From Candidatus Nealsonbacteria bacterium CG07_land_8_20_14_0_80_39_13 (GTDB lineage Bacteria; Patescibacteriota; Minisyncoccia; Minisyncoccales; GCA-002779355), in the NCBI GenBank assembly GCA_002779355.1, contig PEWS01000027.1, positions 1 through 39,667 of the forward strand: a stretch of 39,667 nt of DNA. The letters run 5' to 3'. Every line of letters begins with the position of its first letter. The first letter of the stretch is position 1. Below, in pieces: positions 20,034-39,667 of this stretch. Below the pieces are notes generated by a model. That model ran no database searches. It was not told the DNA's origin and saw only the letters and a program-made list of their open reading frames with translations. Made by a program: the position numbers and the translations under genes.

Positions 20034-20075
20034 TGCTTCAATTTTCAATTTTCAATTTTTAATTTTTAATTTACA

Positions 20076-22156: not shown

Positions 22157-22747
22157 ATGTTTAATTTTTTTAAAAAAGACGATAAAAAACCAAAAAAACT
22201 TTGGCAACAATTTAAAGGCAAGAAAAACACAGAGGATCTTTTAGTCGAAAAAGCAAAAGCTTTAGCTCCTGTTATTATTGGACTTTCGGTCACAGGGTCA
22301 CAAAAACTTAAAAAGTACCACGAACTAAAAAACGTATCAGATGATAAGGTAAAAGAATTATCTTATGAATTGATACCATTTTGTATTCATTGCGCAGATA
22401 GAATAGCATTTCAATATTTTGAACCGGAACAGCGAAAAAAATTTATCATCGCACTTTTTACAGAAATAAGGGGGGATTTATCCAGTGTTTGCGAAAATAA
22501 AAATGATGCTATCCAGATTATGTCTACTTTTACAGATACATATTTTAATAGGCAGGAAGAATATAGTAAATATGAAATGTCTGTCGATAAAGATAATGGA
22601 CATAAAAATGATTTATTTATGGGGTTCAGCATAAAAACCGCACATATGTTAGGCTACGAAATGGATATGAGAATAGTAATGTATATATTTATGACGGTTT
22701 CTTCTTCACTATCTGCCTTTCAGTTGCCAGAGCTTTTTCAAGAATAA
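22157..22747 (+). CDS. Hypothetical protein (196 aa)
   Basis: Long ORF with an A-rich start context. I recognise no motif. Confidence 0.5.
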   Translation: MFNFFKKDDKKPKKLWQQFKGKKNTEDLLVEKAKALAPVIIGLSVTGSQKLKKYHELKNVSDDKVKELSYELIPFCIHCADRIAFQYFEPEQRKKFIIALFTEIRGDLSSVCENKNDAIQIMSTFTDTYFNRQEEYSKYEMSVDKDNGHKNDLFMGFSIKTAHMLGYEMDMRIVMYIFMTVSSSLSAFQLPELFQE

Positions 22748-22968
22748 AAAATTAAACTACTTAAGGTTGATAAGGAATTTGCATTGTACAACAGCGTACA
22801 TGATTTCGCTCCCATTGGTCGCTCACCCATATTTTACTCCGCTACGCTTCGCAAAACATCAGATACACACGTACGTTAAGTGAAATACCCCTTTTTTGCG
22901 TTATCGCCAAATTGTTTTAAAAAATTATAAAATTTCTTTCTCATTAATTAAAAAGTTGCGCTGACTTT

Positions 22969-22991
22969 CATGTTGACGTCTGACGTCAACA
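22969..22991. promoter_or_regulatory. Perfect 11-1-11 palindrome ATGTTGACGTC-T-GACGTCAACAT upstream of hicBA (candidate operator)
   Basis: Direct reading. It is also flanked by TTGCGC / GCGCAA. Confidence 0.6.
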
Positions 22992-23015
22992 TTGCGCAAG
23001 GATATACTAAGAGAA

Positions 23016-23043
23016 TTTGACATAATCTCTCATTTTGATAAAT
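23016..23043 (+). promoter_or_regulatory. Promoter TTGACA-16-TAAAAT (with TGn), 7 nt before the hicB ATG
   Basis: -35 at 23016-23021, -10 at 23038-23043, ATG at 23051. Confidence 0.55.
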
Positions 23044-23050
23044 TTAAGGT

Positions 23051-23308
23051 ATGTTCCAAGATTTTTTGACTTTTTATTTGAATAAAGCCAAATACGAGCT
23101 GATTGAAAACGGCAAGGTTTATTATGGGGAGATTTCCGAACTAAGAGGTGTTTGGGCAACAGGAAAAACTATCGAAGAATGCAGAAAGAATCTTTTAGAA
23201 ATTATTGAAGGATGGGTAATTTTGAGATTGAGAAAAAATTTATCGATTCCAAATTTTAAGATTCCTTACAAGAAAATTTCTTTTAACAGGGTTTATGCCA
23301 AAGCTTAA
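23051..23308 (+). CDS. hicB: HicB-family antitoxin
   Basis: YYGEISELRGVWATGKTIEECRKNLLEIIEGW matches the HicB/UPF0150 pattern. It overlaps the hicA start. Confidence 0.7.
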   Translation: MFQDFLTFYLNKAKYELIENGKVYYGEISELRGVWATGKTIEECRKNLLEIIEGWVILRLRKNLSIPNFKIPYKKISFNRVYAKA

Positions 23309-23516
23309 ACCAATTTCTTGGCGAGAATTAGTAAAATATCTGAAGGGGTTTGGTTTTGAGAGACCATATCAATCGGGGAAACATCCCTATATGGTTAATG
23401 GCGATCTAGTTTTAACCATTTCAAATCCTCACTCTAAGGATATCAGCCAAGATCTTCTTTCTAGAATTTTGAATCAAGCCGGAATCAGCAGAGAAGATTG
23501 GGAAATAAAGAAATAA
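23295..23516 (+). CDS. hicA: HicA-family mRNA interferase toxin
   Basis: ISWRELVKYLKGFGFE....GKHPYM pattern, 73 aa. Confidence 0.75.
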   Translation: MPKLKPISWRELVKYLKGFGFERPYQSGKHPYMVNGDLVLTISNPHSKDISQDLLSRILNQAGISREDWEIKK

Positions 23517-23529
23517 ATTTAAAAGAAAT

Positions 23530-25917
23530 ATGGAAAATCAAAAAGAACAAAAAAATATTTTGTGGTTTAGCGAGATATCTAAAAAAGATGGCGCTTTAGT
23601 CGGTGGGAAGAATGCTTCCTTGGGCGAAATGTTCAATCGGCTGATTGTCAAAAGGATAAGAGTGCCTAACGGCTTTTGTTTGACTTCAAAAGCTTATTGG
23701 TATTATTTGGACTCAAACGGAATTACCGGAAAAATAAAAGAGATTTTGGATAAATTCAATCCTAAGAGCATGGCCAGTTTGAAAAAAACAGGCGCCTCCA
23801 TCCGGGCGTTGATATTGGGCGGTAAATTTCCGAAGGATTTAGAGGATGAAATAATTGAAAGTTATAAAAAATTATCCGGAGAATACGGAGAGAAAAATAT
23901 GATCGTGGCTGTCCGTTCTTCAGCCACAGCCGAAGATTTGAAGGACGCCAGTTTTGCCGGCCAAATGGAATCATATTTAAATATTTCAGGGAAAGAAAGT
24001 CTGTTAAGAGCAATTAAAAATTGTACAGCTTCTTTATTTACTGACAGGGCCATAGCTTATCGCGAGGAAAAAGGCTTTGACCGTTTTAAGATAGCTTTAT
24101 CAGCCGGAGTTTTAAAGATGATAAGATCTGATTTAGCTTCTGCCGGCATAATGTTCACATTGGACACAGAAACAGGATTTAGAAATGTTGTCTCCATAAA
24201 CTCAATCTGGGGAGCGGGAGAGATGATCGTTAAGGGAAAAATAACTCCGGATCAATTTTACGTCTTCAAACCGACCCTTCAGCAGGCTCAAGGCTACAAG
24301 CCAATTATCTCCAGAAATTTAGGAAGAAAAGATAAGAAATATATATTTGCGGAACAGGGATTGAAAGAAGTGAAGGTTTCCAAAGAAGACGAGATGAGAT
24401 TTTCCGTTTCCGATGAGGATATTTTAACTTTGGCCAAATGGGCCATGCTGATAGAAGAGCATTACAATTTCCCTCAAGATATTGAATGGGCTAAGGATGG
24501 GAAAACAGGAGAGCTTTTTATAGTTCAGTCCCGGCCGGAAACAATTCATTCTCTGGAGAAAAAAAATTCTTACGAAGAATATAAAATAAGCCAGATCAAA
24601 GAGCCGATTTTGAACGGCATTGCTATTGGAAGTAAAATAGGGGAAGGAAGGGTTAGGGTAATTTCCGACGTTTCCAAAATAGGAGAATTTAAAAGAGGAG
24701 AGGTTTTGGTTACAAAAATGACTGACCCTGATTGGTGTCCTATCTTTCCTTTGGCATCAGCCATAATTACCGAAGAGGGCGGAGCCACTTGCCATGCCGC
24801 TATTGTCTCCAGGGAGATGGGCATTCCGGCAATGGTTGGAGTAAAGGGCGCCCTTAAAGCTTTGAAAACAGGGCAGACGGTTACGGTTGATTGCACCAGT
24901 AGCCGGGCCGGAAAAATATTTTTAGGGAAAATTCCTTATACGGTTAAAAAATATGACCTTGATAAATTGCCTCAATTGGAAACGAAAATAATGATAAATA
25001 TCGGCTCACCTGATTTGGCGTTTAAATATTCTTCTTTGCCGAACGAGGGCGTGGGATTGGCAAGGGAGGAGTTTATCATCGCTGAAAAAATAAAAATTCA
25101 TCCTTTAGCGCTCTATCATTTTAAAGAATTAAAGGATAAGAAGGCGAAGAAAATTATTGAAGAAATCACGGCTGGATATAAAGATAAGAAAAAATATTTT
25201 ATTGATAAATTAGCTGAAGGCGTTTCTCAAATCGCAGCCGCTTTTTATCCGAAAACAGTCATTGTCAGGTTTTCCGATTTTAAAACCAATGAATATAAAA
25301 ATTTAATCGGCGGAGAAATTTTTGAAAGAACCGATGAATCAAATCCAATGATGGGTTTCAGGGGCGCTTGCCGTTATATAGATAAGAACTATCAGCCGGC
25401 CTTTGAGATGGAATGCCAAGCGATTAAGAAAGCCAGAGAAGAGTTCGGATTGAAAAACATCACAGTGATGGTCCCTTTCTGCCGGACGCTTGAGGAGGGC
25501 AAGGCGGTCGTGGGATTAATTGAGAAGTTCGGCCTTGAAAGAGGGAAAGACGGTTTACAAGTCATTATGATGTGCGAGATTCCTTCCAATGTTATTTTGG
25601 CCGAGGAATTTTTAGAAATTTTTGACGGAATGTCCATCGGCTCCAATGATCTGACTCAATTGACTCTGGGATTGGACAGGGACAATAGCGGACTTGCCCA
25701 TATTGGAGATGAAAGGAATGAAGCGGTAAAAAGAATGATTGAGAGGGTAATTAAGGTCTGTATCTCCAAGAACAAGTATTGCGGGATTTGCGGAGACGCC
25801 CCTTCTTCTTTTCTGGATTTTGCCGATTTTTTAATAGAGAATAAAATTTCCTCCATCTCTCTTTCTCCTGACGCAGTCATCAAAACCATAATTTCTCTCT
25901 CTAAGAAGAATAATTAG
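23530..25917 (+). CDS. ppsA: Phosphoenolpyruvate synthase (pyruvate, water dikinase)
   Basis: N-terminal GGKNASLGEM, phospho-His region GGATCHAAIVSREMGIPA, and a C-terminal PEP-utilising TIM barrel (GSNDLTQL). Confidence 0.92.
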   Translation: MENQKEQKNILWFSEISKKDGALVGGKNASLGEMFNRLIVKRIRVPNGFCLTSKAYWYYLDSNGITGKIKEILDKFNPKSMASLKKTGASIRALILGGKFPKDLEDEIIESYKKLSGEYGEKNMIVAVRSSATAEDLKDASFAGQMESYLNISGKESLLRAIKNCTASLFTDRAIAYREEKGFDRFKIALSAGVLKMIRSDLASAGIMFTLDTETGFRNVVSINSIWGAGEMIVKGKITPDQFYVFKPTLQQAQGYKPIISRNLGRKDKKYIFAEQGLKEVKVSKEDEMRFSVSDEDILTLAKWAMLIEEHYNFPQDIEWAKDGKTGELFIVQSRPETIHSLEKKNSYEEYKISQIKEPILNGIAIGSKIGEGRVRVISDVSKIGEFKRGEVLVTKMTDPDWCPIFPLASAIITEEGGATCHAAIVSREMGIPAMVGVKGALKALKTGQTVTVDCTSSRAGKIFLGKIPYTVKKYDLDKLPQLETKIMINIGSPDLAFKYSSLPNEGVGLAREEFIIAEKIKIHPLALYHFKELKDKKAKKIIEEITAGYKDKKKYFIDKLAEGVSQIAAAFYPKTVIVRFSDFKTNEYKNLIGGEIFERTDESNPMMGFRGACRYIDKNYQPAFEMECQAIKKAREEFGLKNITVMVPFCRTLEEGKAVVGLIEKFGLERGKDGLQVIMMCEIPSNVILAEEFLEIFDGMSIGSNDLTQLTLGLDRDNSGLAHIGDERNEAVKRMIERVIKVCISKNKYCGICGDAPSSFLDFADFLIENKISSISLSPDAVIKTIISLSKKNN

Positions 25918-25940
25918 GGAATTTATGGTAAAATTAAAAT

Positions 25941-26924
25941 ATGTTAGACATTATTACTTTTGGCTCGGCGGCCATTGATATTTATCTTAAATCAAAAAAA
26001 CTTAATCTCGTTGACAGCAATAAATTCCCGACCGGCACAGGAGTCTGTTTTTCTTTAGGATCCAAAATAGAGATTGATGATATTATTTTCCTCGGCGGAG
26101 GAGGAGGAACGAATACCGCAGAAACTTTTTCCCGGCAAGGGCTGAAGACAGGATATTGCGGAATGGTTGGAAAAGATATGGCCGGAGAAGAAGTCATTAA
26201 AGACTTGGCTGATTCCGGCGTGGAAAGCTTTATCGTCAGAACTGATAAGAGAAAAACTAATCAGTCAGTCATTCTTTCCCAAAACGGCAACGAAAGAAGT
26301 GTTTTGGTTTACAGGGGAGCGTCAGGAGAACTTTCAAGAAAAGACATTCCCTTTAATAAACTGAAAGCGAAGTTTTTTTATTTTGCTCCTTTGTCTGGCA
26401 AGCTTTGCCATGACTTTGAATTTTTGGTTAACTTCGCCCATGAGAGCGGAGCTAAGGTGGTTGTCAATCCCAGTTCTTATCAACTCGCCTTACCCAAAGA
26501 TAAATTTAAAAGAATTATTAAAAAAGTTGACATTTTGATATTAAATCAAGAAGAAGCGTCTCTTCTTACGGGAATACCGTTTGAGAAAGAAGAAGAACTT
26601 TTCAAAAAAATAGATTGTTATTGCCCTGGGATAGCCATAATGACAAAAGGATCGGAAGGGGTGGTTGTTTCTGACGAGAAAAACATTTATCGGGCCAAGT
26701 CTTTAAAAACTAAAGAAGTGAATGCTACCGGCGCCGGCGACGCATTCAGTTCAGGATTTGTTTCCGGTTTCATTGAAACCAATGGAGATATTGAGTATGC
26801 CATCCGGCTGGGAATAGCCAACAGCGTTTCCTGCATAAAGAAAATGGGAGCGAGGAATGGTTTGCTGAAAAGAGGAGATAAGTGGGAAAAGGTAAAAGTT
26901 GAAAAGATAGCTATCAAAAATTAA
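25941..26924 (+). CDS. PfkB-family carbohydrate kinase
   Basis: GGGGGTN near the N-terminus and the NATGAGDAF anion hole near the C-terminus. Confidence 0.8.
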   Translation: MLDIITFGSAAIDIYLKSKKLNLVDSNKFPTGTGVCFSLGSKIEIDDIIFLGGGGGTNTAETFSRQGLKTGYCGMVGKDMAGEEVIKDLADSGVESFIVRTDKRKTNQSVILSQNGNERSVLVYRGASGELSRKDIPFNKLKAKFFYFAPLSGKLCHDFEFLVNFAHESGAKVVVNPSSYQLALPKDKFKRIIKKVDILILNQEEASLLTGIPFEKEEELFKKIDCYCPGIAIMTKGSEGVVVSDEKNIYRAKSLKTKEVNATGAGDAFSSGFVSGFIETNGDIEYAIRLGIANSVSCIKKMGARNGLLKRGDKWEKVKVEKIAIKN

Positions 26925-27763
26925 TGAAAAATCTCAATTATTATCTAAATAAAGCAAGAAAAGAGGGCTGGGCCATCGGCCAGTTTAATTTTTCCAATTT
27001 AGAAACATTGAAAGCCGTCATCGGGGCAGCCAAAAAGAGCAAAAGCCCTGTTATTTTGGGAACGTCAGAAGGGGAGAGTTCCTTTGTCGGATTAAAACAG
27101 GCGGTGGCTTTGGTGAAAAGCTACAGAGAAGAAACAGGCTTGCCTTTGTTCTTGAATCTTGACCACGGCAAATCTTTCAGCTATATTAAGGAAGCGATAG
27201 ATTCCGGTTATGACACTGTTCATTTTGACGGTTCAGGCTTGCCTTTAGCCGAAAATATAAAAGAAACCGTAAAAGTTTTAAAGTACGCTAAAAAATTTAA
27301 AGTTTTCGTTGAGGGAGAAGTGGGCGTGATCGGCCAAGCTTCGGAATCAAAGGAAACCTTGACTGATGTTGCGGAGGCTCTGGAATTCGCAAGAAAGACA
27401 GGCGTTGATAGGTTGGCTGTTTCCATAGGGAGCGTTCATGGGATTGAAAAAGGAGGAATTAATCCCGGATTAAATTTGGAAAGATTGGCGGAAATAAGAA
27501 AAGCCTTGAAAGATATACCCCTTGTTCTTCATGGCGGGTCAGGAACCCCGGAAGAAGATGTCAGGAAAGCCATAAGGATAGGGATGGCTAAGGTTAATAT
27601 AAACACAGAATTAAGAATGGCTTACACGGAGAATTTGAGAGCCTCTCTTGATGAAAAAAAAGATGAAAACACGCCTTATAAATATATGTCCAAGGCGATA
27701 GAAGCGGTTCAAAGAATAGTTGAGGGGAAAATCAAATTATTCAGCTCTGATAACAAAATTTAA
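26924..27763 (+). CDS. fba: Class II fructose/tagatose-bisphosphate aldolase
   Basis: NLDHG, HFDGS, GSVHG, LVLHGGSG. Confidence 0.88.
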   Translation: MKNLNYYLNKARKEGWAIGQFNFSNLETLKAVIGAAKKSKSPVILGTSEGESSFVGLKQAVALVKSYREETGLPLFLNLDHGKSFSYIKEAIDSGYDTVHFDGSGLPLAENIKETVKVLKYAKKFKVFVEGEVGVIGQASESKETLTDVAEALEFARKTGVDRLAVSIGSVHGIEKGGINPGLNLERLAEIRKALKDIPLVLHGGSGTPEEDVRKAIRIGMAKVNINTELRMAYTENLRASLDEKKDENTPYKYMSKAIEAVQRIVEGKIKLFSSDNKI

Positions 27764-27775
27764 AAAAGAAAAAAT

Positions 27776-28483
27776 ATGTTAAAAATTTCAGCTCAAATAA
27801 GAGATAAAGGAGATAAAGACTTGTCCGCGCTTAAAAAAGAAGGGTTTCTCCCTGGCGTTTTGTACGGTCCAAAAATAGGAAATAAAAATATTAAAATCGG
27901 AGTTAAGGAATTCGCCACGGTCTATAAAGGCGCCGGCGAAAGTTCCCTTATTTCCCTGATTGTTCCTGATCAGGGTGGCAAAGAGGAGAAATTTTCAGTT
28001 TTGATACATCAGGTTGATTTTCATCCGTTGAACGGAGAAATAATTCACGCTGATTTTTACCAACCGAATTTAACAGAGAAAGTAACGACCAAGGTTCCTT
28101 TAGTTTTTGAAGGAATTTCTTTAGCGGTTAAAGATCTGGCCGGAACTTTAATAAAAAATATTCAGGAAATTGAAGTAAGGGCTCTGCCCCAAGACCTTCC
28201 TCATGAGCTCGTTGTGAACATTGAGCCTCTTAAAACTTTTAATGATGAAATTCTGGTTAAAAACCTTATTATTCCCGCCAATGTGGAGGTTTTGAAGAGC
28301 CCTGAAGAAAATGTAGCTTTGGTTCTGCCTCCTGAAGATATAGAAGCGGAATTGAAAGCTCCTATTGAAGAAAAAGTGGAAGATGTTGAGAAGGTAGAGA
28401 AGAAGAAGGAGGAAGAAGTGGCAGAGGTGGAGGAAAAGAAAGAAAAGGAAGAGAAAGGAGGAGAGAAGAAAGAACATAAATAA
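27776..28483 (+). CDS. rplY: Ribosomal protein L25 (Ctc form) with an acidic/Lys-rich tail
   Basis: GFLPGVLYG, HQVDFHPL, and the two-domain Ctc layout. Confidence 0.88.
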   Translation: MLKISAQIRDKGDKDLSALKKEGFLPGVLYGPKIGNKNIKIGVKEFATVYKGAGESSLISLIVPDQGGKEEKFSVLIHQVDFHPLNGEIIHADFYQPNLTEKVTTKVPLVFEGISLAVKDLAGTLIKNIQEIEVRALPQDLPHELVVNIEPLKTFNDEILVKNLIIPANVEVLKSPEENVALVLPPEDIEAELKAPIEEKVEDVEKVEKKKEEEVAEVEEKKEKEEKGGEKKEHK

Positions 28484-28613
28484 GAAACTCAAATTACAAA
28501 TTTCAAATTACAAATTCCAAATCAATAATTAAAGTCCAAAATCTAAAACATTTTTGATATTTGGGTTTTGAATTTGATTTGACATTTGAGCTTTGATATT
28601 TGGCATTATATTT

Positions 28614-30014
28614 ATGTCTATCTTTGCTCTACAAAAAATAAAACCATCTATATTGATTTCATCAATGATATTGATAGCGGTTTTTATTTTGCCGATTTTT
28701 TTCGCTTTTCCTTTTGTCGGCAAGATTCCTTTTGCGTCAGCTGAAGGAGAGCAGGAGGCAGCGACTGTTGAAAGAACTGCTTTGGAAAAAGAATTGGCGG
28801 AATTGGAAATCCAGATAGATAAATATGAGAAAGACATCAGCAAGACCGCCGAAGAAAAAAAGACTCTTCAAAATCAGATATCCATTTTAAAAAATAAAAT
28901 CAGCAAATTGGATCTTCAAATAAAGCAGAGTAATCTTGTTATAAAAGACCTCACCGGCCAAATAAAAGACACAGAGTCGTCCATCTCGGAAACGATGGTT
29001 AAGGTCGCTGACGTTCAGAGGCAATTAGGAGATATTCTTCAGGTTATGTATGAAAATGACAGAAAGTCTTTGATTGAGATATTACTTTCCGAGAAAGAGA
29101 TGTCTGATTTTTTTGACGATATAATGGCTTTAGAGGTTTTGAATTCCAAAAATCAGGATATGCTGGAAGAAATAAAGAAACTGAAAGCGTATCTGGAAAG
29201 CCAAAAAACTTCTTTGGACGGAGAAAAGACGGAATTAGAAACAACGGTTAAAATTCGAACGCTCCAAAAGGAAGAAAGTTTAAAAAACCAAAAGGGGAAA
29301 GATAAATATTTAAAATTAACCGAAGCGCAGTATCAAAAATCTCTTAGTGAAAAAAAAGAAATAGAAAAGAAAGTGGCTGGAATCAGGTCAAGGATTTTTG
29401 AATTAATCGGTGTTCCGGATGCTCCCACCTTCGGCGAGGCGCTGGAAATGGCAAAAACAGTTTCCGCTTCAACCGGAATCAGGCCAGCCTTTCTTTTGGC
29501 TGTTCTTACCCAAGAGTCAAATATCGGCAAGAACGTAGGACAATGTTTTCTGAAAGACGCTAAAACAGGAGCCGGGGTTGTTGCCAGTAGCAACAAGAGC
29601 ATCTCCAATGTTATGAGTCCGAAAAGAGATACGGCTCCATTTATAGAAATTACAAAAGAATTAGGCAGGGATCCTTTTAATACTTTGGTTTCTTGCCCTA
29701 TGAGCTATGGTTATGGGGGGGCTATGGGTCCGGCTCAATTTATTCCTTCCACTTGGCAATCTTATAAAGATAGAATAAAGGCCGCCACAGGAAAAGCGGC
29801 TGATCCTTGGAACATCCGGGACGCTTTTTTTGCCGCCGGTTTTTATTTAAGCGATTATGGGGCGAAAAAGCAGACAGCGGATGCGGAATGGAAAGCGGCG
29901 ATGATTTATTTTTCCGGAGGCACTAACGTGAAATACCGTTTTTATGGCGATTCAGTTGTTTCAATTACTAAGCAGTATTTGTCCGACATCGCCGACCTCG
30001 ACACCGTTAAATAA
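28614..30014 (+). CDS. Membrane-anchored coiled-coil protein with a C-terminal MltB-like lytic transglycosylase domain
   Basis: TM segment, a long heptad-rich region, then LTQESNIG and GAMGPAQFIPSTW. The track start 28593 is TTG; the ATG at 28614 is preferred. Confidence 0.75.
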   Translation: MSIFALQKIKPSILISSMILIAVFILPIFFAFPFVGKIPFASAEGEQEAATVERTALEKELAELEIQIDKYEKDISKTAEEKKTLQNQISILKNKISKLDLQIKQSNLVIKDLTGQIKDTESSISETMVKVADVQRQLGDILQVMYENDRKSLIEILLSEKEMSDFFDDIMALEVLNSKNQDMLEEIKKLKAYLESQKTSLDGEKTELETTVKIRTLQKEESLKNQKGKDKYLKLTEAQYQKSLSEKKEIEKKVAGIRSRIFELIGVPDAPTFGEALEMAKTVSASTGIRPAFLLAVLTQESNIGKNVGQCFLKDAKTGAGVVASSNKSISNVMSPKRDTAPFIEITKELGRDPFNTLVSCPMSYGYGGAMGPAQFIPSTWQSYKDRIKAATGKAADPWNIRDAFFAAGFYLSDYGAKKQTADAEWKAAMIYFSGGTNVKYRFYGDSVVSITKQYLSDIADLDTVK

Positions 30015-30015
30015 A

Positions 30016-31140
30016 TTATTCTTCCTGCTCTTCGGCTGATTCCATGGCTTCTATAATGGGGTCAAGTCTTCCTTCCATTATCTCTTCAATGCCGTGGAAA
30101 GATTTTTTAATTCGGTGGTCGGTTACTCTGTCTTGAGGAAAATTGTAGGTTCTGTTTTTCTCCGCTCTTTTGGCCCTTCCTATTTGTCCTTTTCTGTCCC
30201 CGCCTAATTTTTGAGCCTCTTCCTCCTCTCTTATTTCAAGGAGGCGAGCTGATAGAACGCTCAAGGCGTTTTCTTTATTTTGGAGCTGGTTTCTTTCGGT
30301 CTGGGATTCAACGACCAATCCTGTCGGGATATGGACTATTCTTACAGCCGTCTCTCTTTTATTGACGTTTTGCCCGCCCGGTCCTGACGAACGGCAATAT
30401 TCAATTTTTAATTCATCAGGTTTAATTTCCAATTGAGTATTTTTCGGTTTCGGAAGAATGGCCACTGAAACGGTGGAAGTGTGTATTCTTCCGCTTTTTT
30501 CCGTTTCGGGAATTCTCTGGACTCTATGGACCCCGGACTCGTTTTTCATTTTAGAGAAAATATCGCCGTTCCCGTCCGCATCGCTATGCGAAGCGTTGCG
30601 GGTGGATTCCAGCTGAAATACGATTTCTTTAAATCCGCCAGTTTCAGTAGGGCTGGAATTAAGGATTTTTTGCCTCCAACCTTGCTGTTCCGCGAACCTT
30701 GAATACATCTTGAATAAATCTCCGACGAATAAAGCTGCTTCGTCTCCCCCTGCGCCGGCCCTGATTTCAACGATTATGTCTTGCGGTTCAGAGCTTTCTT
30801 TCTGGCCTTTGATTAATTTTTTTAATTCTTTTTCCAAGACCTCCTTTCTTTCCCTGAATTGAGTAATCTCAATTTCAGCCAAGGAGGATAATTCGGGGCC
30901 TTCTTTCCCATTCAGGATCGCCCTGTTTTCTTCAATTCTGTCGTCAATTTCTTTTATTTCTTTTTCTTTCTCAATTATTTTTTCAAGATAGCTTTTCCTT
31001 TTAGATAGTTCTTCAAATTTTTTCCAGCCCGCATCGCTACGCGAAGCGTTGCTGGCGGGCCAATCAGAAATCAGCTCAGGGTTGCTGAGCTGATTTAAAA
31101 TTTCTTTATATTCCCGCTGAATATCGCTTAGGTTATCCAT
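30016..31140 (-). CDS. prfA: Peptide chain release factor 1
   Basis: P-E-T tripeptide (RIPETEKSGRIHTS), GGQ (SGPGGQNVNK), and DHR near the C-terminus. Confidence 0.93.
   Translation of the reverse strand: MDNLSDIQREYKEILNQLSNPELISDWPASNASRSDAGWKKFEELSKRKSYLEKIIEKEKEIKEIDDRIEENRAILNGKEGPELSSLAEIEITQFRERKEVLEKELKKLIKGQKESSEPQDIIVEIRAGAGGDEAALFVGDLFKMYSRFAEQQGWRQKILNSSPTETGGFKEIVFQLESTRNASHSDADGNGDIFSKMKNESGVHRVQRIPETEKSGRIHTSTVSVAILPKPKNTQLEIKPDELKIEYCRSSGPGGQNVNKRETAVRIVHIPTGLVVESQTERNQLQNKENALSVLSARLLEIREEEEAQKLGGDRKGQIGRAKRAEKNRTYNFPQDRVTDHRIKKSFHGIEEIMEGRLDPIIEAMESAEEQEE
30571..30605 (-). repeat. GC-rich palindromic element, in-frame copy inside prfA
   Basis: On the coding strand: CCACCCGCAACGCTTCGCATAGCGATGCGGACGGG. 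It encodes TRNASHSDADG. Confidence 0.8.
31024..31062 (-). repeat. GC-rich palindromic element, in-frame copy near the prfA N-terminus
   Basis: On the coding strand: TGGCCCGCCAGCAACGCTTCGCGTAGCGATGCGGGCTGG. It encodes WPASNASRSDAGW. Confidence 0.8.
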
Positions 31141-31155
31141 TTCCTGATTGAGCGA

Positions 31156-31425
31156 TTAATCCTTCTTTGATGTCTTTTCGGCTGTCCGTTTTCTTCTTTT
31201 TTCTTTCTTACTTTTGGCATCAGTCTTATGAGACATTCTCTTTCTGAATTTTTCCACCTTAGCCATAGCGTCGGTATCTTTTTCTTTTCCGGTATAAAAA
31301 GGATGGCATTGAGAGCAGATTTCAGTCTCAATGTATTCCTTAGTTGAACCGACGGTAAAAGTATGTCCGCAGGCGCATTTGACCTTGGTCTCGGGATAAT
31401 ATTTTGGATGAATATCTTCTTTCAT
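31156..31425 (-). CDS. rpmE: Ribosomal protein L31 with a Lys-rich C-terminal extension
   Basis: MKEDIHPKYY, CACGH...CSQCHPFYTGK zinc-ribbon type. Confidence 0.92.
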   Translation of the reverse strand: MKEDIHPKYYPETKVKCACGHTFTVGSTKEYIETEICSQCHPFYTGKEKDTDAMAKVEKFRKRMSHKTDAKSKKEKRRKRTAEKTSKKD

Positions 31426-31432
31426 ATTGAGT

Positions 31433-31461
31433 ATAATAACAAATCCCTAAATTAAAAGCAA
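31433..31461 (-). promoter_or_regulatory. Promoter TTGCTT-17-TATTAT, 7 nt before the rpmE ATG (leaderless layout)
   Basis: Minus-strand reading: -35 at 31456-31461, -10 at 31433-31438, start codon at 31423-31425. Confidence 0.55.
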
Positions 31462-31537
31462 TACTTGCGTTAAAACATGATATGTGATAAATATTGAAGT
31501 ATGATTTGTTAAGATTTTTAATTATAATTTTTAAAAA

Positions 31538-32302
31538 ATGACCGAAGATAAAAAGAAGAATAAAATAAAAACAGCAGACGAAGCAAAGGAAGGACTTGAC
31601 TTTGAAGAATTAGTTAAGGCCGGTTTGTATTTTGGCCACAAAACTTCAAGCACTCATCCTAAGATGAAGCAATACATTGAATCGTCAAGGAATAGAATTC
31701 ATATTATTGATTTGGCGAAAACAGCGGAAAAATTAAAAGAAGTTCTTGATTTTATCGGCGATCTGGTTTCTCAAGGGAAAGAAATTCTTTTTGTCGGCAC
31801 CAAGATTCAGGTAAAAGATAAAATAAAAGAGGTGGCTGAAGAATGCCATCTTCCTTACGTCAATCAAAGATGGCTCGGAGGAACATTCACTAATTTCGAA
31901 ACAATCAAAAAGAGATTGGAATATTTCAGGAGTTTGGAAATGCAGAAGGCTTCAGGCGAGCTCCAAAAATACGTAAAGAAAGAAAGACTTAAGATTGACA
32001 GAGAAATAGAGGGGCTGAGGAAGAAATTCGGAGGCATTAAAAATTTGGAAAAACTTCCGACAGCTGTATTCGTTACAGATATGAAAGAAAACATCCTGGT
32101 TGTAAAGGAGGCCAGAGAGAAGGGGATAATAGTGATTGCTATCGCTGACACTAATGTTAACCCGGCGTTGGCGGATCATTTCATTCCCGCTAACGACGAC
32201 GCTATTTCTTCGTTAAATTATATTCTGGACAGAGTGAAGAAAGCAATTTTAGAAGCCAAACCCCAGCCAAAGGCCAGTCAGCCTCTGGCTGACAAAAAAT
32301 AA
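31538..32302 (+). CDS. rpsB: Ribosomal protein S2
   Basis: GLYFGHKTS..HPKM, ILFVGTK, VFVTD, AIADTN. Confidence 0.95.
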   Translation: MTEDKKKNKIKTADEAKEGLDFEELVKAGLYFGHKTSSTHPKMKQYIESSRNRIHIIDLAKTAEKLKEVLDFIGDLVSQGKEILFVGTKIQVKDKIKEVAEECHLPYVNQRWLGGTFTNFETIKKRLEYFRSLEMQKASGELQKYVKKERLKIDREIEGLRKKFGGIKNLEKLPTAVFVTDMKENILVVKEAREKGIIVIAIADTNVNPALADHFIPANDDAISSLNYILDRVKKAILEAKPQPKASQPLADKK

Positions 32303-32304
32303 TT

Positions 32305-32892
32305 ATGGCAAGTATTGAGGAAATAAAAAAACTCCGCGAAGAAACAGGAATTTCTTTGATGGAATGCCGGAAGGCTCTTGAAAAATCAGGCGATGATATT
32401 GAGAAGGCAAGGGATATTTTGAGAACATGGGGTAAGGAAGTCGCCAAGAAAAAAGGGGCGGAAAGAACAGCCGGCCAAGGTTTAATTGAGAGCTACATTC
32501 ACCCTAATAAAAAAATAGGGGTTTTATTGAGCATTCGCTGCGAATCAGATTTTGTGGCCATGTCTGATAACTTCAAGAATTTAAGCCATGAAATATGTCT
32601 TCAGGTGGCGGCTTCAAATCCGATGTTCGTCAGAAGAGAAGATATCTCTGCTGAAGTATTGGAGAAAGAAAAGGAAATTTACAAAGAACAAATGAAGGAC
32701 TCCGGCAAGTCCCAACAGATTCTTGAGCAAATCACAGAAGGCAAGCTAAGAAAATACGAGGAGCAAAATTGCCTGCTTCTTCAGCCGTGGATAAAGGAGC
32801 CGGACAAGAAAGTTGAAGATTTGGTCAATGAGTATATTTCTAAAATCGGCGAAAAAATCGTCATTGAAAAATTTACAAGATATGAGTTATGA
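32305..32892 (+). CDS. tsf: Elongation factor Ts (short form)
   Basis: IKKLREETGISLMECRKALE UBA-like N-terminus and SYIHPNKKIGVLL. It directly follows rpsB. Confidence 0.92.
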   Translation: MASIEEIKKLREETGISLMECRKALEKSGDDIEKARDILRTWGKEVAKKKGAERTAGQGLIESYIHPNKKIGVLLSIRCESDFVAMSDNFKNLSHEICLQVAASNPMFVRREDISAEVLEKEKEIYKEQMKDSGKSQQILEQITEGKLRKYEEQNCLLLQPWIKEPDKKVEDLVNEYISKIGEKIVIEKFTRYEL

Positions 32893-33223
32893 AACAATAA
32901 TCGCTTTAATTGCGATGGGGGCCGGTTTTCTCGGGGCGAGCATTATTTTTTTTAAGAAAATTCCGGCACTCGCGAGTTTGCCGGAGGTAGCAGAGGCAGG
33001 CTCGGCTAAAAGCCATTGGTCAGAATCAATTATCGCTTCGGGAAAAAAGCATCAGGAAAAAATAATCAAAACAGCCGTATCCGGGATGAAATCAGTGAGG
33101 TCAATGAAATCAATAACAGAGGTTAAGGCTTCGGAGTGGATTAAAAATTTGCAGAAAAGAACAAAGAAGGAGAAGAAGAAAGATAATTATTGGGATGAGA
33201 TCAGAAAATCCTTCAAGAAATAA
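32882..33223 (+). CDS. Small membrane protein (hypothetical)
   Basis: MSYETIIALIAMGAGFLGASIIFF TM segment and a basic tail. The ATG at 32882 is preferred over the track start 32813, which overlaps tsf by 80 nt. Confidence 0.45.
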   Translation: MSYETIIALIAMGAGFLGASIIFFKKIPALASLPEVAEAGSAKSHWSESIIASGKKHQEKIIKTAVSGMKSVRSMKSITEVKASEWIKNLQKRTKKEKKKDNYWDEIRKSFKK

Positions 33224-33228
33224 TTTCC

Positions 33229-33301
33229 GCCAGAATAGCTCAGCGGTAGAGCAACTGTTTTGTAAACAGTAGGTCGGCGGGTCCGAATCCCCCTTCTGGC
33301 T
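33229..33301 (+). tRNA. tRNA-Thr (anticodon UGU)
   Basis: Acceptor GCCAGAA/TTCTGGC, D arm GCTC-AGCGGTA-GAGC, anticodon arm ACTGT-TTTGTAA-ACAGT. The T arm GCGGG-TCCGAAT-CCCCC has one C-C mismatch, and the variable loop is 6 nt. Confidence 0.75.
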
Positions 33302-33308
33302 CAGGGTG

Positions 33309-33337
33309 TTGACATGTAATTTTGGAAAAGCTAATAT
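33309..33337 (+). promoter_or_regulatory. rRNA promoter TTGACA-17-TAATAT
   Basis: -35 at 33309-33314 and -10 at 33332-33337, about 135 nt upstream of the 16S 5' end. Confidence 0.7.
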
Positions 33338-33470
33338 GGATGAACGGAGAAATGAAAAAAATAAAAGAAGAAATGGAAAGGACGTTGAAAATTAAATACA
33401 GTAATAGTTCTAAGTCAGTTTTTTTGAGTTGTTCCGAATATTTTTGGAATTTCTCAAAAGATTCCAAGTT

Positions 33471-34962
<1,492 letters not shown>

Positions 34963-35076
34963 AATTGTTTGTCGACCGTGGTTGAGAAATGAGAATTCTT
35001 TTCTCAACTTTGCGGGGTTGGTCGAATTCCTGAAAAAATCGACCTTCGGAACAACTCAAAGATACTGAAGAACTAC

Positions 35077-35102
35077 AAAAAACAAGGCAGGCCTTGTTTT
35101 TT
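35077..35102 (+). terminator. Intrinsic terminator after the 16S trailer
   Basis: AAAAAACAAGGC-AG-GCCTTGTTTTTT. Confidence 0.8.
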
Positions 35103-35148
35103 GGGTTTAATTTGCTAAAATTAAAATCACTTTTCATAATCAACCCAA

Positions 35149-35742
35149 ATGATTTTTTATAAAATTTTTTCTTATATATACAAAAGAGCGGCTCGGAGCA
35201 TGTGCCTGGACTGCAAGGATTTTATAAAGAATGGGGCGAAAATTCTTGATTTAGGTTGCGGTTCGGGAATAGCCGGAGATTATTTTAAAAAATTTTTTAA
35301 GGCCGAGGTTTTTGGGGTGGATGTAAAAAATAATAGGGTGGTTGATCTTCCCTTTAAAAAAATAGACGGGAAAAATCTTCCCTTTGATGATAATTCGTTT
35401 GACGCAGTTCTGATATGCTATGTTCTTCACCACGCCGAAGACCCCATCGCCGTTTTAAAAGAAGCGAGGAGGGTGGGGAAGGAAAGGATTGTTATTTACG
35501 AAGATATGGCTGACGGATTTTTTTCAAAATTATTCTGCCGTTTCCATGGATTAAGCTTTGATATTTTCTTTCAGGGATTTGTCGGCAAAAAGCGGGAAAA
35601 TCCGGAATATTTTTTTAAGGGGGAGAAAGAATGGCAGGGGATTTTTAAGGGATTGGGGCTGAAAGTTGTTTTTGAGAAAAGGATTTCGTTGCCGATTTCC
35701 CCGGTCGCCAAAAGAATTTTTATTTTAGATATCGTAAAATAA
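35149..35742 (+). CDS. Class I SAM-dependent methyltransferase
   Basis: Motif I ILDLGCGSGIAG and the post-I acidic residue; FDAVLICYVLHH. Confidence 0.8.
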   Translation: MIFYKIFSYIYKRAARSMCLDCKDFIKNGAKILDLGCGSGIAGDYFKKFFKAEVFGVDVKNNRVVDLPFKKIDGKNLPFDDNSFDAVLICYVLHHAEDPIAVLKEARRVGKERIVIYEDMADGFFSKLFCRFHGLSFDIFFQGFVGKKRENPEYFFKGEKEWQGIFKGLGLKVVFEKRISLPISPVAKRIFILDIVK

Positions 35743-35767
35743 TATGCGTTTGAAAATATAATAATAT

Positions 35768-35831
35768 GCGTGTGTAGCTTCGGCCTCGTCCAGAGGACGA
35801 TCAGCCTTTGGCTGAGGTTAGAGCGCGTCAC
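35768..35831 (+). pseudogene. Decayed duplicate of the 5' half of tRNA-Ile (nt 1-32), with 37 nt replacing 6 nt of the D loop
   Basis: GCGTGTGTAGCT + 37 nt + GTTAGAGCGCGTCAC, compared with the intact GCGCGTGTAGCT-CAGTTG-GTTAGAGCGCGTCAC at 36091-36123. Confidence 0.7.
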
Positions 35832-35839
35832 CTTTGGAT

Positions 35840-36100
35840 ATGTTCTGTGTGTATTTTTTGAAAAGCATTAAAAATGGTAAGATTTACGTAGGATTTACTT
35901 CTAAAAATATTGAGGTAAGGGTTGAAGAACATAATAGCGGTTCAAACGTTTTTACGAAAAACAATAAGCCATGGGTTTTGGTATATTATGAGATATTTAG
36001 TTGTGAAAAATGCGCTAGAGCGAGAGAGAAGTTTTTTAAATCGGGTATGGGTAAAAGATTAAAAAAGATAATTGTAGATAATTTTAATATGCGCGTGTAG
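35840..36100 (+). CDS. Small GIY-YIG nuclease family protein
   Basis: VYFLKS..GKIYVGFTSKNIEVRVEEHNSG is the GIY-YIG motif. The stop codon TAG lies inside the tRNA-Ile gene. The track start 35834 is TTG. Confidence 0.8.
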   Translation: MFCVYFLKSIKNGKIYVGFTSKNIEVRVEEHNSGSNVFTKNNKPWVLVYYEIFSCEKCARAREKFFKSGMGKRLKKIIVDNFNMRV

Positions 36101-36164
36101 CTCAGTTGGTTAGAGCGCGTCACTGATAATGACGAGGTCCGTGGTTCGAGTCCACGCTCGCGCA
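36091..36164 (+). tRNA. tRNA-Ile (anticodon GAU)
   Basis: GCGCGTG-TA-GCTC-AGTTGGTTA-GAGC-G-CGTCA-CTGATAA-TGACG-AGGTC-CGTGG-TTCGAGT-CCACG-CTCGCGC-A. Confidence 0.9.
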
Positions 36165-36243
36165 CTCTTTCACCTCGCTCTCTTGCCGTTATTCGGCAGG
36201 GGGAACGGAGTTTTGTTTTAAGGCGGTTTTTTGTTTGAAATAC

Positions 36244-36272
36244 TTGACAAGATTTATATAGTATGCTATACT
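36244..36272 (+). promoter_or_regulatory. Consensus promoter TTGACA-17-TATACT
   Basis: -35 at 36244-36249 and -10 at 36267-36272. An ATG follows 6 nt later, at 36279. Confidence 0.7.
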
Positions 36273-36278
36273 TACATC

Positions 36279-36422
36279 ATGAGAGTTAATCCTGAGCAGA
36301 CATACGAAAAAGTGCTCAGGGGAAAGTACGGAGAGGTGTATTATCTTTCGTTCACAAGGGGGACGCCCGTACCGCCGAACGTAGGCGATTGCAGGAGATT
36401 TTCTCATCCATGGAAGAGCTAA
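36279..36422 (+). other. Leaderless 47-codon sORF or a ~127-nt structured RNA; status unresolved
   Basis: As an ORF it reads MRVNPEQTYEKVLRGKYGEVYYLSFTRGTPVPPNVGDCRRFSHPWKS. The same bases fold into a closing stem ATGAGAG/TTCTCAT plus three hairpins. Confidence 0.35.
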
Positions 36423-36854
36423 AGAAGTTCCTTCTTAGTCAGGAGGATTTCAATGATTTTTCTAGATTTGAAGATGCAGAGAGCTGCATTTTCAAGGACG
36501 AAAAATTCCCGTGCGCCTTCACGGGATAGGTGTTTAAGGGAGCACGACAATAATTGTCCTCTGCCCCTATATTTCTAAGTTCGGAATTACATTATTAAAA
36601 AATTACGAATTTAGAAATGCTCCGGTCCCGCTGAAAGCGGGACGGGGGTTTAAAGAAAGAAGTCGGAAGCGCTTTCGCGACGGGGATATCTCTTTCCAGT
36701 TCTTCGCAAGAAGAACAATCTCTGTTACGAAAGCACCCCCGGCTTTTTTCAGTCCAGAGGACTATTCAGCCCAGAGAGCTTTCAAGTTGTAAATGTGTCA
36801 ATGAGGAGGTAAAATAGAAAAATAAGAACAATATTTAGAATATTTTTGAACTCT

Positions 36855-37814
36855 ATGAAAACTCGAAAGGAAGATAATATAATTTACCATGGTAGTAATT
36901 GGGTATTGGTTGAAACCCAAGATGATAATCTTTTTGATATATTGTACAAAGAAGGGTACGAGAGAGTGGTTTTGGTGAATCAATTGGGTGTGGACGGTAC
37001 ATTTGAATATATTATTGGCAAAAAAACAGAAAAAACGGATGATTTTCCGGTCGGCCCAGAAACCGAAGAAGGATCGATACTTTTCGAATTAAATAAATTA
37101 GAGATGGGTTGGGCTGGCAGTATTCAGTATGGTGGAGCGCCAATAAATACTGATGGTTCGAGATCATTGCTTACTCCGCAGATGGTCATCAGTGTTATTA
37201 ATAAAGTTGTCAATAAAAAGGATGAACAAAATTTTCTAATCGGCAAAGATCAACAATTTGAAATTGACCCGGAAAAATTATTCTCCAAAGAATCATCATG
37301 CTATCAAGTGGAAACAGATCGGCTGGGCAAAGTATCCTATGTAAACATAGATAACGCCGCTACAACTCCGCCTTTTATATCGGTGCAAAATGGCGTTAAT
37401 GATTATTTAAAGACTTATGGTTCAGTTCATCGTGGAGCTGGTACTAAATCAAAAATATCTACTGATATTTACGAACAAACACGGCAAGTCATTAAAAATT
37501 TTGTTGGGGCTCCGGAAAATTTTTATGTTCTTTTTTCCGGAAACACAACTGGAGCCATGAATAATGTAGCCTATTTTTTCTCATTTCTTGATGGAAAGGT
37601 GGCGGTATCGGAAATAGAGCATAGCTCATCTTGGTTGCCATGGATTAAAGCTGAAGGTGAAAGATCGTTGGGAGCAAATCGCGTTGATTTTGCACATGTG
37701 CATGAAACACAAGAAAAAATACAAGAAGCGGGTCGTGAAATGGTTTTGAGGTATCCACTCAATAGCGAAGGTGAGTTTGACCTCGCTGGCATTGAAGAAA
37801 TGCTAAAAAAATAA
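36855..37814 (+). CDS. Class V aminotransferase / cysteine desulfurase-like PLP enzyme, 5' fragment with ~150-aa N-terminal extension
   Basis: NIDNAATTPPF, SVHRGAG, FSGNTTGAMN, EIEHSS..PW. It ends at a TAA right after an A7 run. Confidence 0.75.
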   Translation: MKTRKEDNIIYHGSNWVLVETQDDNLFDILYKEGYERVVLVNQLGVDGTFEYIIGKKTEKTDDFPVGPETEEGSILFELNKLEMGWAGSIQYGGAPINTDGSRSLLTPQMVISVINKVVNKKDEQNFLIGKDQQFEIDPEKLFSKESSCYQVETDRLGKVSYVNIDNAATTPPFISVQNGVNDYLKTYGSVHRGAGTKSKISTDIYEQTRQVIKNFVGAPENFYVLFSGNTTGAMNNVAYFFSFLDGKVAVSEIEHSSSWLPWIKAEGERSLGANRVDFAHVHETQEKIQEAGREMVLRYPLNSEGEFDLAGIEEMLKK

Positions 37815-37833
37815 TAAAATTAAGGCGTTTATT

Positions 37834-38607
37834 TTGACTGCCTCGTCAAATCTGACTGGTTATCGTCCAGATATTAAAAAAATTGGCGAACTTGTTCATA
37901 AATATGGAGCATACTATATTATCGATGCTTGCCAATTTTTGCAACACCACAAAGTTGATATGATGGAAATGGGAATAGACTTTCTGGCCGTTTTCGGACA
38001 CAAATTTTACGCGCCTTATGGTGGTGGTTTTCTTATTGGGCCAAAAAACTTTTTGGATGAATTTTTGCCGTATCAGATTGGCGGTGGCAACTTGCCCTAC
38101 ATTACAAGGGAGGGTGTGTTCTTGCGCTATAAAAATCAATTAGCGCATGATCCCGGTACACCAAACGCCGTTGGCGCTGTCTCTATGGCTATCGCGCTTA
38201 ATCAATTGAAAAAAATCGGAATCGAAAAAATTGAATCATATGAATCAAATTTAGCGAGAGAAGCATTTGACGTTTTGAAAAAAAACGAAAAGGTTCGTCT
38301 GCTTGTAAAGAGTAATCACTTAAGTACAGTAATACCTTTTATCATAGAAGGGCAGGATTCACAGATAGTTGCCGAACGCTTAAATAAAGAATTTGGAATA
38401 GGCGTTCGCGCTGGAAGTTTTTGCGTGTATGACGTGGTAAGAAATCTTTTGGGAATAGAGGACGAGCAGAAAATAATTGAGGCCGTTAATCATGGCGATA
38501 CCTCGCTTATACCAGGAATTATTCGGGCATCTTTTGCGCTTTGCAACTCAAGAAATGATGTAAAAAGATTTATTCAAGCAATAAATTGCGTTACTCAAAA
38601 TAATTAA
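37834..38607 (+). CDS. Class V aminotransferase-like PLP enzyme, 3' fragment (frame open from 37807)
   Basis: TASSNLTGY, IIDACQ, the PLP-lysine block FGHKFYAPYGGGFLIG, and VRAGSFC. Confidence 0.75.
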   Translation: MTASSNLTGYRPDIKKIGELVHKYGAYYIIDACQFLQHHKVDMMEMGIDFLAVFGHKFYAPYGGGFLIGPKNFLDEFLPYQIGGGNLPYITREGVFLRYKNQLAHDPGTPNAVGAVSMAIALNQLKKIGIEKIESYESNLAREAFDVLKKNEKVRLLVKSNHLSTVIPFIIEGQDSQIVAERLNKEFGIGVRAGSFCVYDVVRNLLGIEDEQKIIEAVNHGDTSLIPGIIRASFALCNSRNDVKRFIQAINCVTQNN

Positions 38608-38740
38608 ATATATGAATAATAAAAAATCACAAATGTTTAGCGAAACACCAGCTGTACTGCAACGCGAGGATCATAAGTATATGTCTACCGAAGACAAAAA
38701 ATGTGAAAAGGAAATAACCGAAGAAAAAAAAGAGAGGTAG

Positions 38741-39667
38741 AGGCAAATCCTTCGCAAGATTCCGGTTGCAGTAAATAACTTTTACGGTGATCCTGTTATA
38801 CAGTGGGAAAACACAATTGAAAAATTAGGAAATTTAGAAAAAAGTCGTCATACTGGTCCAATTGGGATTATTATGAAGGGGAAGCTTGACGAGAGGAAAG
38901 TAACGGAACTTAAAGAAAAAAAAGAGAAGGGATTAAATTTAGTAATTTTAATTTCTATTTCTGAATTAACAGAGTTAGAAGGAACTGATTCTGCGCATCG
39001 TTATGAAAATATCCGTATGTTAACCGAGGCCGGCGTACCAGCTATTGCTTATATTCGTCCGATGATGCCCCCCTTTAATACTTCTGAGGAGGTGATTGGC
39101 AAAATTTTTTCACAGTTAAAAGAGGCCGGTTGCACTTCCGCAGTTGCATCTGGTTTTCGTGGCGACGAAGCTTTAGTGGAAAGACTTTCTCCCGACGAAA
39201 GAGTGCAATGGGCTATGCGGGTAAAGGTAATGCCCGGAGAAATTTTTAAAAGAATCAAAAAATATGCCGAAGCAAATAACATCCAGTTATTTACTCGAAC
39301 CGCTTGCGCTGTTTCTGCTGCCACTGGAGGAGAAAGAACCTATAATCCATACTACAATAGTCCTAATTTAGTTAAATGCACGGAATTAAATTGTCCGATA
39401 CAGGACACTTGCGCTCCGCTTTCCGAGCCGAAAGAAGGATCGCTTGAACTTATAAAACGATTAGGGTTTGATGTGGAATTTGTTCCTTCTGCCAATGGAA
39501 AAGCGTGTGGTGTAAGCGGGGAAGACAGATTGAGATGTCCCTCTTGTTGCACGACTTGTTATTTTTCCAGCAATATTCCCCACTTATTGGTTAGGGGCAA
39601 TGTGAATTTAGGAGACTTGGCTTTTATCAGATTTACGACCGGCATGATGGCTATGCAACCAGGACGA
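38741..39667 (+). CDS. Partial ORF running off the window; TIM-barrel-like region, then a Cys-rich CPSCCTTCY (CX3CX2C) motif
   Basis: Hand translation gives an open frame from 38741 to 39667 with no stop. It is in the same frame as the 42-codon ORF 38612-38740, separated by one TAG. It is not in the ORF track. Confidence 0.55.

Follow-up and report, generated by a model that had tools for sequence, protein, structure and literature searches.

Between the tRNA-Ile gene and the class-V aminotransferase operon, the window (the whole 39,667-nt stretch of DNA that was analysed) carries what we tentatively read as one small, lineage-restricted transcription unit at 36244-36750, i.e., a young small gene with terminator/stabiliser hairpins. 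We put the probability of this reading at roughly 0.45. A near-consensus sigma-70 promoter would start transcription at or next to the A of ATG 36279, the product would be a leaderless mRNA, and the message would encode an 83-residue orphan protein (36279-36529). In the window haplotype, one T would have been lost from a T-run, leaving a 47-aa and a 39/46-aa ORF, so the gene would be either a fresh pseudogene or dispensable. The transcript would run on into approximately 220 nt of very stable hairpins and end at a 96-nt hairpin plus U-run. These hairpins would most likely terminate transcription, protect the 3′ end of the RNA and shield the operon downstream, which is served by a promoter of its own. 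We infer the transcription, leaderless start, translation and terminator/stabiliser role of the unit from its sequence, and we read the segment as an orphan, recently acquired unit of unproven function rather than as a discrete riboregulator. If this best explanation is true, the locus holds an ordinary young orphan gene with terminator/stabiliser hairpins at a rearranged tRNA locus.

The source is a Candidatus Nealsonbacteria (CPR/Patescibacteria) population. PIW90944.1 is identical or near-identical to the protein encoded downstream of the segment, and the same holds for many JGI and ENA groundwater contigs. The neighbouring genes are:

33471-34961: 16S rRNA, with its own promoter at 33309 and a bidirectional terminator at 35076-35103
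35149-35742: class-I SAM methyltransferase, between 16S rRNA and tRNA-Ile
approximately 35768-35832: pseudo-tRNA, a partial copy of the 5′ half of tRNA-Ile
35834-36100: GIY-YIG ORF, 88 aa
36091-36165, + strand: tRNA-Ile(GAT), with a hairpin of its own and T-runs downstream (36180-36240); the unit's left boundary
36855-38607: class-V aminotransferase, frameshift-split in the window

The aminotransferase is split into 319 and 257 aa by one extra A in an A-run (window 37806-37834), reading EEMLKK followed by two stops vs EEMLKNNKIKAF in the intact 583-aa P0022, and both versions occur in many assemblies. UGA recoding was considered as the cause of this split and dropped, since the stop is TAA. 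A 23S gene is absent after the tRNAs, both in the window and in a relative with the same gene order, so the rRNA genes are unlinked.

Promoter and reading frames

The 5′ part of the unit contains these features:

36244-36272, + strand: sigma-70-type promoter TTGACA-17-(TGc)TATACT; predicted transcription start approximately 36279
36279-36422, + strand: 47-codon ORF, probably the 5′ fragment of an 83-codon ORF, frameshift-truncated in the window haplotype
36346-36348, + strand: T-run; one more T (36349) in haplotype L028/L029 joins both ORFs
36410-36529, + strand: 39-codon ORF, probably the 3′ part of the 83-codon ORF; its frame is open from 36296
36453-36578, + strand: 41-codon ORF, judged non-coding

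The promoter matches 11 of the 12 consensus positions, has a TG before the -10 box and scores above the 16S promoter at 33309. It is the top sigma-70 match in 20000-39667, the half of the window that the promoter scan covered, and this bears out the initial annotation, which had named a promoter at 36244 with its predicted start at an ATG. The ATG at 36279 follows the end of the -10 box (36272) by 6 nt, and an ORF does open at the predicted transcription start. In the full-length fold, the first 12 nt remain free of pairing. On this promoter geometry, a leaderless mRNA from ATG 36279 is plausible. Such a start fits the organism because it has no anti-Shine-Dalgarno (anti-SD) sequence: the 3′ end of its 16S rRNA (window 34940-34961) reads ...GCGCAUAGAUCAAUAAUU / ...CUGCGCAUAGAUCAAUAAUU, without CCUCC. 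SD-like motifs are found at the starts of none of the 31 genes, the upstream regions of which are A/T-rich.

Leaderless bacterial mRNAs for small proteins are common in Actinobacteria and Deinococcus. As in leaderless mRNAs of the lambda cI type, the AUG here falls on the +1 predicted for a strong promoter, the 5′ end is free of base pairs and the organism does without an SD/anti-SD system. The differences are that the start is only predicted, that the protein is an orphan with intermediate codon usage and a frameshift in the window haplotype, and that a 220-nt hairpin-rich 3′ region is unusual. The perfect placement of promoter and ATG makes this locus a concrete CPR candidate for leaderless initiation.

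The three small ORFs that had been listed at first (47, 39 and 41 aa) all exist at their positions, and exact look-ups found that public pipelines had called the 39-aa ORF, the 41-aa ORF and a 60/63-aa version of the first. The 41-aa ORF had been described as preceded by AGGAGG-N6, but as an argument for the ORF this does not hold up: its codon score is -0.162 (off-frame level), and the AGGAGG is irrelevant because the organism has neither an anti-SD nor SD sites. The motif is also sequestered in the hairpin at 36424-36451. More generally, no small ORF of this organism can be argued for from SD motifs, because the anti-SD is lacking.

The 47-aa and 39-aa ORFs are probably halves of one 83-aa orphan gene that is frameshifted in the window. 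P0153, found by a word-index search with the 63-aa ORF, is the sole informative protein. It comes from two independent assemblies (L028 and L029), in which an additional T at 36349 reads through as one ORF, 96 aa as called and 83 aa from ATG 36279 (36279-36529). The 47-aa ORF, originally treated as a unit of its own, is therefore probably not one. The frameshift-disrupted version is present in 12 of the 14 assemblies examined and the 83-codon frame is open only in L028/L029. Frames 0 and 2 are both open over 36296-36422, making a chance fusion by an indel easy.

Across the 14 assemblies, 36279-36529 contains SNPs only at 36287, 36409 and 36421, all of them third-position and synonymous in the fused frame. 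Three synonymous SNPs out of three, a very small sample, correspond to p of approximately 0.01-0.04 at an expected synonymous fraction of 0.20-0.34. SNP 36409 is synonymous in the 39-aa/fused frame and changes Pro to Gln in the 47-aa frame, SNP 36421 is synonymous in the 39-aa frame, and SNP 36287 is synonymous in the 47-aa frame.

Codon usage was scored with a model trained on 27 window genes, under which genes score approximately 0.26 (5th percentile 0.15) and the off-frame 95th percentile is 0.03. Frame 0 of 36279-36348 scores 0.233, i.e., at gene level. After the T-run the best frame becomes frame 2, as a fused ORF would require, but at only 0.04-0.05, and the C-terminal two-thirds of the 83-codon ORF reach only 0.04. 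The ORF as a whole scores 0.087, below the 5th percentile of genes and above the off-frame 95th percentile. Strong hairpins within its 3′ third are atypical of coding sequence.

A phmmer search with the C-terminal 39 aa against 1.84 billion representatives gave no homologue, nothing in Pfam, PHROGs, NCBIfam or PDB matches the 83-aa protein, and its AlphaFold model (pLDDT 38.8) has no confident fold. Candidate kinships that were rejected are Pfam HLH (E = 0.02, under threshold) and GIY-YIG (BLASTP E = 0.66). The 385-aa P0002 is glycosyltransferase-like and unrelated; that it clusters with the 39-aa ORF is an artefact.

The 3′ hairpin block

Downstream of, and partly within, the 83-codon ORF the following structures are found:

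36424-36527, + strand: three stable hairpins in the ORF's 3′ third (approximately 36424-36451, 36467-36497 and 36507-36526)
36556-36762, + strand: 3′ hairpin block, with hairpins at 36571-36618, 36619-36649 and 36655-36750
36556-63 / 36755-62, + strand: optional closing stem GUCCUCUG/CAGAGGAC, which competes with a hairpin at 36538-36567
36655-36750, + strand: terminal hairpin of 96 nt, with a GC-rich base (GUCGG/CCGGC) and then UUUUUU
36752-36771, + strand: short palindromic unit GTCCAGAGGAC(T)AT(T)CAGCC, directly after the terminal hairpin

Nowhere else in the 40 kb is there RNA-like sequence as structured as the 3′ block. When the whole window is scanned in 150-nt windows, the lowest z of all falls at 36601-36750 (-10.7), and 36421-36570 (z = -6.6) ranks among the three lowest on the + strand; both exceed every 16S window in structure. 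The fold of 36279-36760 has z = -7.4, a signal that arises from 36420-36770, where 100-nt windows on the + strand give z of -2.2 to -5.7. For 36530-36760, z is -9.7 and the minimum-energy structure equals the centroid; 36548-36770 also gives z = -9.7. All three hairpins of the block form with probabilities of 0.7-1.0 in the full transcript, mostly >0.9. The closing stem, by comparison, has a probability of 1.0 alone and 0.02 in context, where it loses to the local hairpin. A second structure outlier on the + strand, a long hairpin inside a TauE/SafE permease gene (4321-4470), was set aside: its z of -7.0 with 20 shuffles drops to -3.7 with 200.

Structure at the RNA level on the + strand is favoured by three observations. 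The block has z = -9.7 on the + strand vs -5.8 on the - strand, with the + strand folding 15 kcal/mol better; the stems contain 12 G.U pairs vs 2 C.A mismatches; and the population SNPs at 36663 and 36746 turn G.U into G-C. The 96-nt hairpin is likely the terminator of the unit, judging by its stem base CCGGC and the U-run (36739-36749). A consensus terminator scan made no call here, the loop being long.

We consider it rather unlikely that the whole of 36279-36766 is instead a non-coding structured RNA of approximately 490 nt (an sRNA, structural or regulatory) that is transcribed from its own promoter and in which the ORFs are incidental. The extreme fold statistics, the strand asymmetry and the SNPs that improve the terminal hairpin would all suit such an RNA, as would its GNRA-type loops (GCAA, GAAA-like). 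The same can be said of an ORF that is broken in most assemblies, scores weakly for codon usage past 36349 and has no protein homologues. However, the region has no Rfam match even at E up to 10 and no covariation support, with nhmmer (696 kb) and covariance-model (approximately 0.77 Mb) searches of CPR loci coming back empty. The first 70 nt are gene-like in codon usage, and the three SNPs of the ORF are all synonymous. Near-perfect hairpins that form independently follow one another along the RNA, in place of an irregular fold of the tertiary type, and the long-range helices are unstable in context.

Lineage distribution and palindromic units

Relatives of the aminotransferase were gathered from GTDB genomes, a protein search and seven contig look-ups. 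Where the aminotransferase is 59-89% identical, the locus retains the downstream operon (which also encodes a 426-aa protein and a radical-SAM-like protein), and the operon is preceded by an HTH_3 gene, an integrase, tRNA-Ser or other genes. Segment 36166-36807 is absent from these loci (nhmmer/blastn, L011-L027). We therefore rejected the idea that it is a conserved 5′ leader or riboswitch of the aminotransferase operon, as the operon is kept and the segment is not. One part of the spacer is common to relatives:

36808-36850, + strand: sole shared spacer part, 84% identical to L019-L021 across 43 nt; it forms the aminotransferase operon's 5′ region and overlaps with a promoter-like site (36787-36815)

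In the closest relatives, an HTH_3 (XRE-type) gene of 62-69 aa precedes the operon (L019 912-1100, L022 297-506 and equivalents), and in L019 a DUF4372 (transposase-type) gene adjoins it. This HTH_3 gene is absent from the window lineage. The segment was also considered as its decayed copy, which was rejected when tblastn of HTH_3 proteins against the segment gave no match.

The tRNA side gives the same picture. A 29-mer scan of metagenomes for the same tRNA-Ile anticodon arm collected 120 tRNA-Ile loci (696 kb), and none has a match to the segment with nhmmer at E up to 1. Two loci, L043 and L145, share the order 16S, methyltransferase and tRNA-Ile, then continue with tRNA-Ala and a terminator; in L043, the 16S is 80% identical to that of the window and the methyltransferase lies at 2518-3108(-). 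A covariance model of 36554-36765, run over approximately 0.77 Mb of related CPR loci, returned self matches only. Within 36071-36860, 0-2 SNPs separate the 12 near-identical contigs of the population, and these contigs give no covariation information. Against phages and plasmids, blastn of 36166-36850 produced one chance 47-nt match, and two pattern scans of viral contigs did not find the segment. A remnant of 23S rRNA or its processing stems, RNase P, SRP, 6S, tmRNA, and group I/II introns were likewise rejected as identities, with no model match and no motif.

By these comparisons, segment 36166-36807 is lineage-restricted, being limited to a single CPR population, and sits at the junction of two separately conserved blocks. 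The initial annotation had named a lack of conserved structure or ORF in relatives as grounds for refutation; neither is conserved among the relatives sampled, and on that basis its claim fails.

The palindromic unit after the terminal hairpin, in the form GTCCAGAGGAC(N)AT..CAGCC, also occurs in the pseudo-tRNA at 35788-35807 (2 matches vs 0.15 expected), and the inverse unit ATTGTCCTCTG at 36553-36563 is the left arm of the optional closing stem. The 3′ block thus has terminal inverted repeats, AATTGTCCTCTG (36552-63) and CAGAGGACTATT (36755-66), complementary at 11 of 12 bases. Sharing of the GTCCAGAGGAC unit ties the block to a local palindromic-unit family and to an unstable region. For example, the hairpin insertion of the pseudo-tRNA, which spans 36 nt here (window 35780-35815), measures approximately 150 nt in L001 (2250-2410), L006 and L009, the expanded array being made of mini-hairpin units (e.g., GTCC-AGA-GGAC and CAGCC-NNN-GGCTG) and including TTGTCCTCTGGACAA. 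Approximately 160 nt of the GIY-YIG ORF are deleted in L002, L003, L008 and L009 (vs window 35910-36073).

Two adjoining hairpins of the same type as the pseudo-tRNA array, CCAGCC-AAA-GGCCAG and CAGCC-TCT-GGCTG, lie at 32263-32292 (at the end of rpsB, before tsf), which suggests a genome-wide family of short palindromic units.

These repeats are the main support for a further alternative, in which the segment is non-functional filler at a rearrangement junction—decaying mobile DNA, made up of a dead gene fragment and palindromic units of the REP or MITE kind, brought in with or beside the GIY-YIG cassette of the tRNA-Ile locus, its promoter and ORF being leftovers. We hold this to be possible but on the unlikely side. 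In its favour, the segment is missing in every relative sampled, exactly between the two conserved synteny blocks; inverted GTCCAGAGGAC.AT copies bound the 3′ block, with the unit recurring in the adjacent array; that array and the GIY-YIG ORF are length-polymorphic in the population; the ORF is frameshifted; and related small hairpins occur at 32263-32292. Debris would not be expected, however, to stay nearly invariant in at least 12 assemblies, drawn from several samples, next to a polymorphic region, nor to keep a near-perfect promoter. The G.U:C.A ratio of 12:2 and the better + strand energy indicate selection at the RNA level rather than a DNA palindrome.

Comparison with REP/BIME-, Correia- and MITE-like elements gives a similarly divided result. 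Once transcribed, elements of this kind serve to terminate transcription or stabilise RNA. The likeness lies in the stacks of near-perfect hairpins in a spacer, the inverted terminal unit bounding the 3′ block, and the related, length-polymorphic short units nearby. The differences are that no second copy of the 3′ block was found in the 39.7-kb window or in viral, phage and plasmid collections (only the 11-14-nt unit recurs), that no target-site duplication was seen around the segment, that the internal hairpins are mutually unrelated, and that the G.U bias is strand-specific.

Partial tRNA copies are not confined to this locus. In the CPR loci examined, 17 of approximately 250 tRNAs have their own first 12-34 nt copied 34-368 nt upstream, outside other tRNAs, compared with 1 in a reversed-probe control. 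Behind the 5′ copy there are often small GC-rich hairpins, inserted where the D-loop would be, and after them the 3′ part of the D-arm. Loci with such copies include L012 (9263-9202(-)), L075, L105, L085 and L111, and a small GIY-YIG ORF lies between the 5′-half copy and the intact tRNA both in the window (tRNA-Ile) and in L115 (tRNA-Phe). The arrangement resembles free-standing GIY-YIG cassettes housed in tRNA genes, together with their decayed scars. Many unusual tRNA leaders in Patescibacteria may have their explanation in tRNA 5′ halves that were duplicated, with GIY-YIG genes or hairpin scars in between.

A bolder possibility is that the approximately 490-nt transcript is a new, lineage-specific dual-function CPR RNA, acquired with a mobile GIY-YIG/tRNA cassette. 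Such an RNA would be a leaderless message for a small protein and, in its 3′ domain (36420-36766), a functional structure selected at the RNA level, a candidate protein-binding scaffold or orphan retron-like/defence-type RNA. We think this quite improbable. Dual-function sRNAs (RNAIII/hld, SgrS/SgrT, SR1/SR1P) also join a small ORF and extensive stable structure in one short transcript, but the likeness is in layout only, as there is no base-pairing target evidence here and no conservation. In isolation, 36556-36762 resembles a retron msr-msd, with inverted repeats closing two short hairpins and one long one. Unlike a retron, however, it has no adjacent reverse transcriptase (its neighbours are tRNA-Ile and the class-V aminotransferase) and no Rfam retron-type match, and its closing stem is unstable in context.

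The isolated element at the 5′ end

The initial annotation had singled out a closed three-hairpin fold at 36279-36405. Its parts are largely as described: ATGAGAG is present at 36279-36285, and the three enclosed hairpins exist (CCTGAGC/GCTCAGG at 36291-97 / 36314-20, GTACGG/CCGTAC at 36326-31 / 36367-72, and CGCC-GAACGTA-GGCG at 36373-87). The 3′ arm of the closing stem, TTCTCAT, exists too but lies at 36401-36407, not 36399-36405. The GC rise is also real, at 0.51-0.52 over 36300-36449 vs 0.35-0.38 on either side. The element, with its end corrected, is:

36279-36407, + strand: 129 nt, equal to ORF codons 1-43; closing stem and three hairpins when isolated

The initial annotation could not match the fold to RNase P, tmRNA, SRP, 6S, TPP, glycine or T-box consensus, and this agrees with the Rfam covariance models. 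At the gathering threshold of Rfam 15, only 16S and three tRNAs pass in the whole window. For 36100-36900 at E up to 10, there are only chance snoRNA/miRNA matches of 16-21 bits, far below gathering scores. The families covered include riboswitches, T-box, RNase P, tmRNA, SRP, 6S, ROOL/GOLLD/raiA/OLE/HEARO, group I/II introns and ribozymes.

It is very improbable that this element is a discrete closed RNA (riboswitch- or sRNA-like) that doubles as a 47-aa leaderless peptide: it has an ATG at the predicted transcription start and folds as proposed when isolated, but it is marginal against shuffles, loses its closing stem and second hairpin in longer transcripts, and has neither an Rfam match nor conservation, while SNP 36409, in the 47-aa ORF, is non-synonymous in the 47-aa frame and synonymous in the fused one. 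The minimum-energy structure of the isolated 129-mer is exactly the proposed fold (-37.6 kcal/mol), with z = -2.0 and 7 of 200 dinucleotide shuffles equally stable. With the uncorrected end, z is -1.6 and 16 of 200 shuffles are equally stable. Sliding 100-nt windows across the element give z of +0.25 to -1.2, i.e., no excess structure. The closed three-hairpin architecture is thus neither beyond chance nor robust, and is most likely an incidental feature of the ORF's first 43 codons, with two of its four helices stable. If the young-gene reading is true, there is a caution here: an isolated 127-nt piece of coding sequence can fold like a closed RNA domain. In longer transcripts (36279-36530 and 36279-36770; partition function), the pair probability of the closing stem is 0.00-0.02 and that of GTACGG/CCGTAC 0.02-0.12, and CCUGAGC/GCUCAGG and CGCC/GGCG alone persist, with probabilities >0.9.
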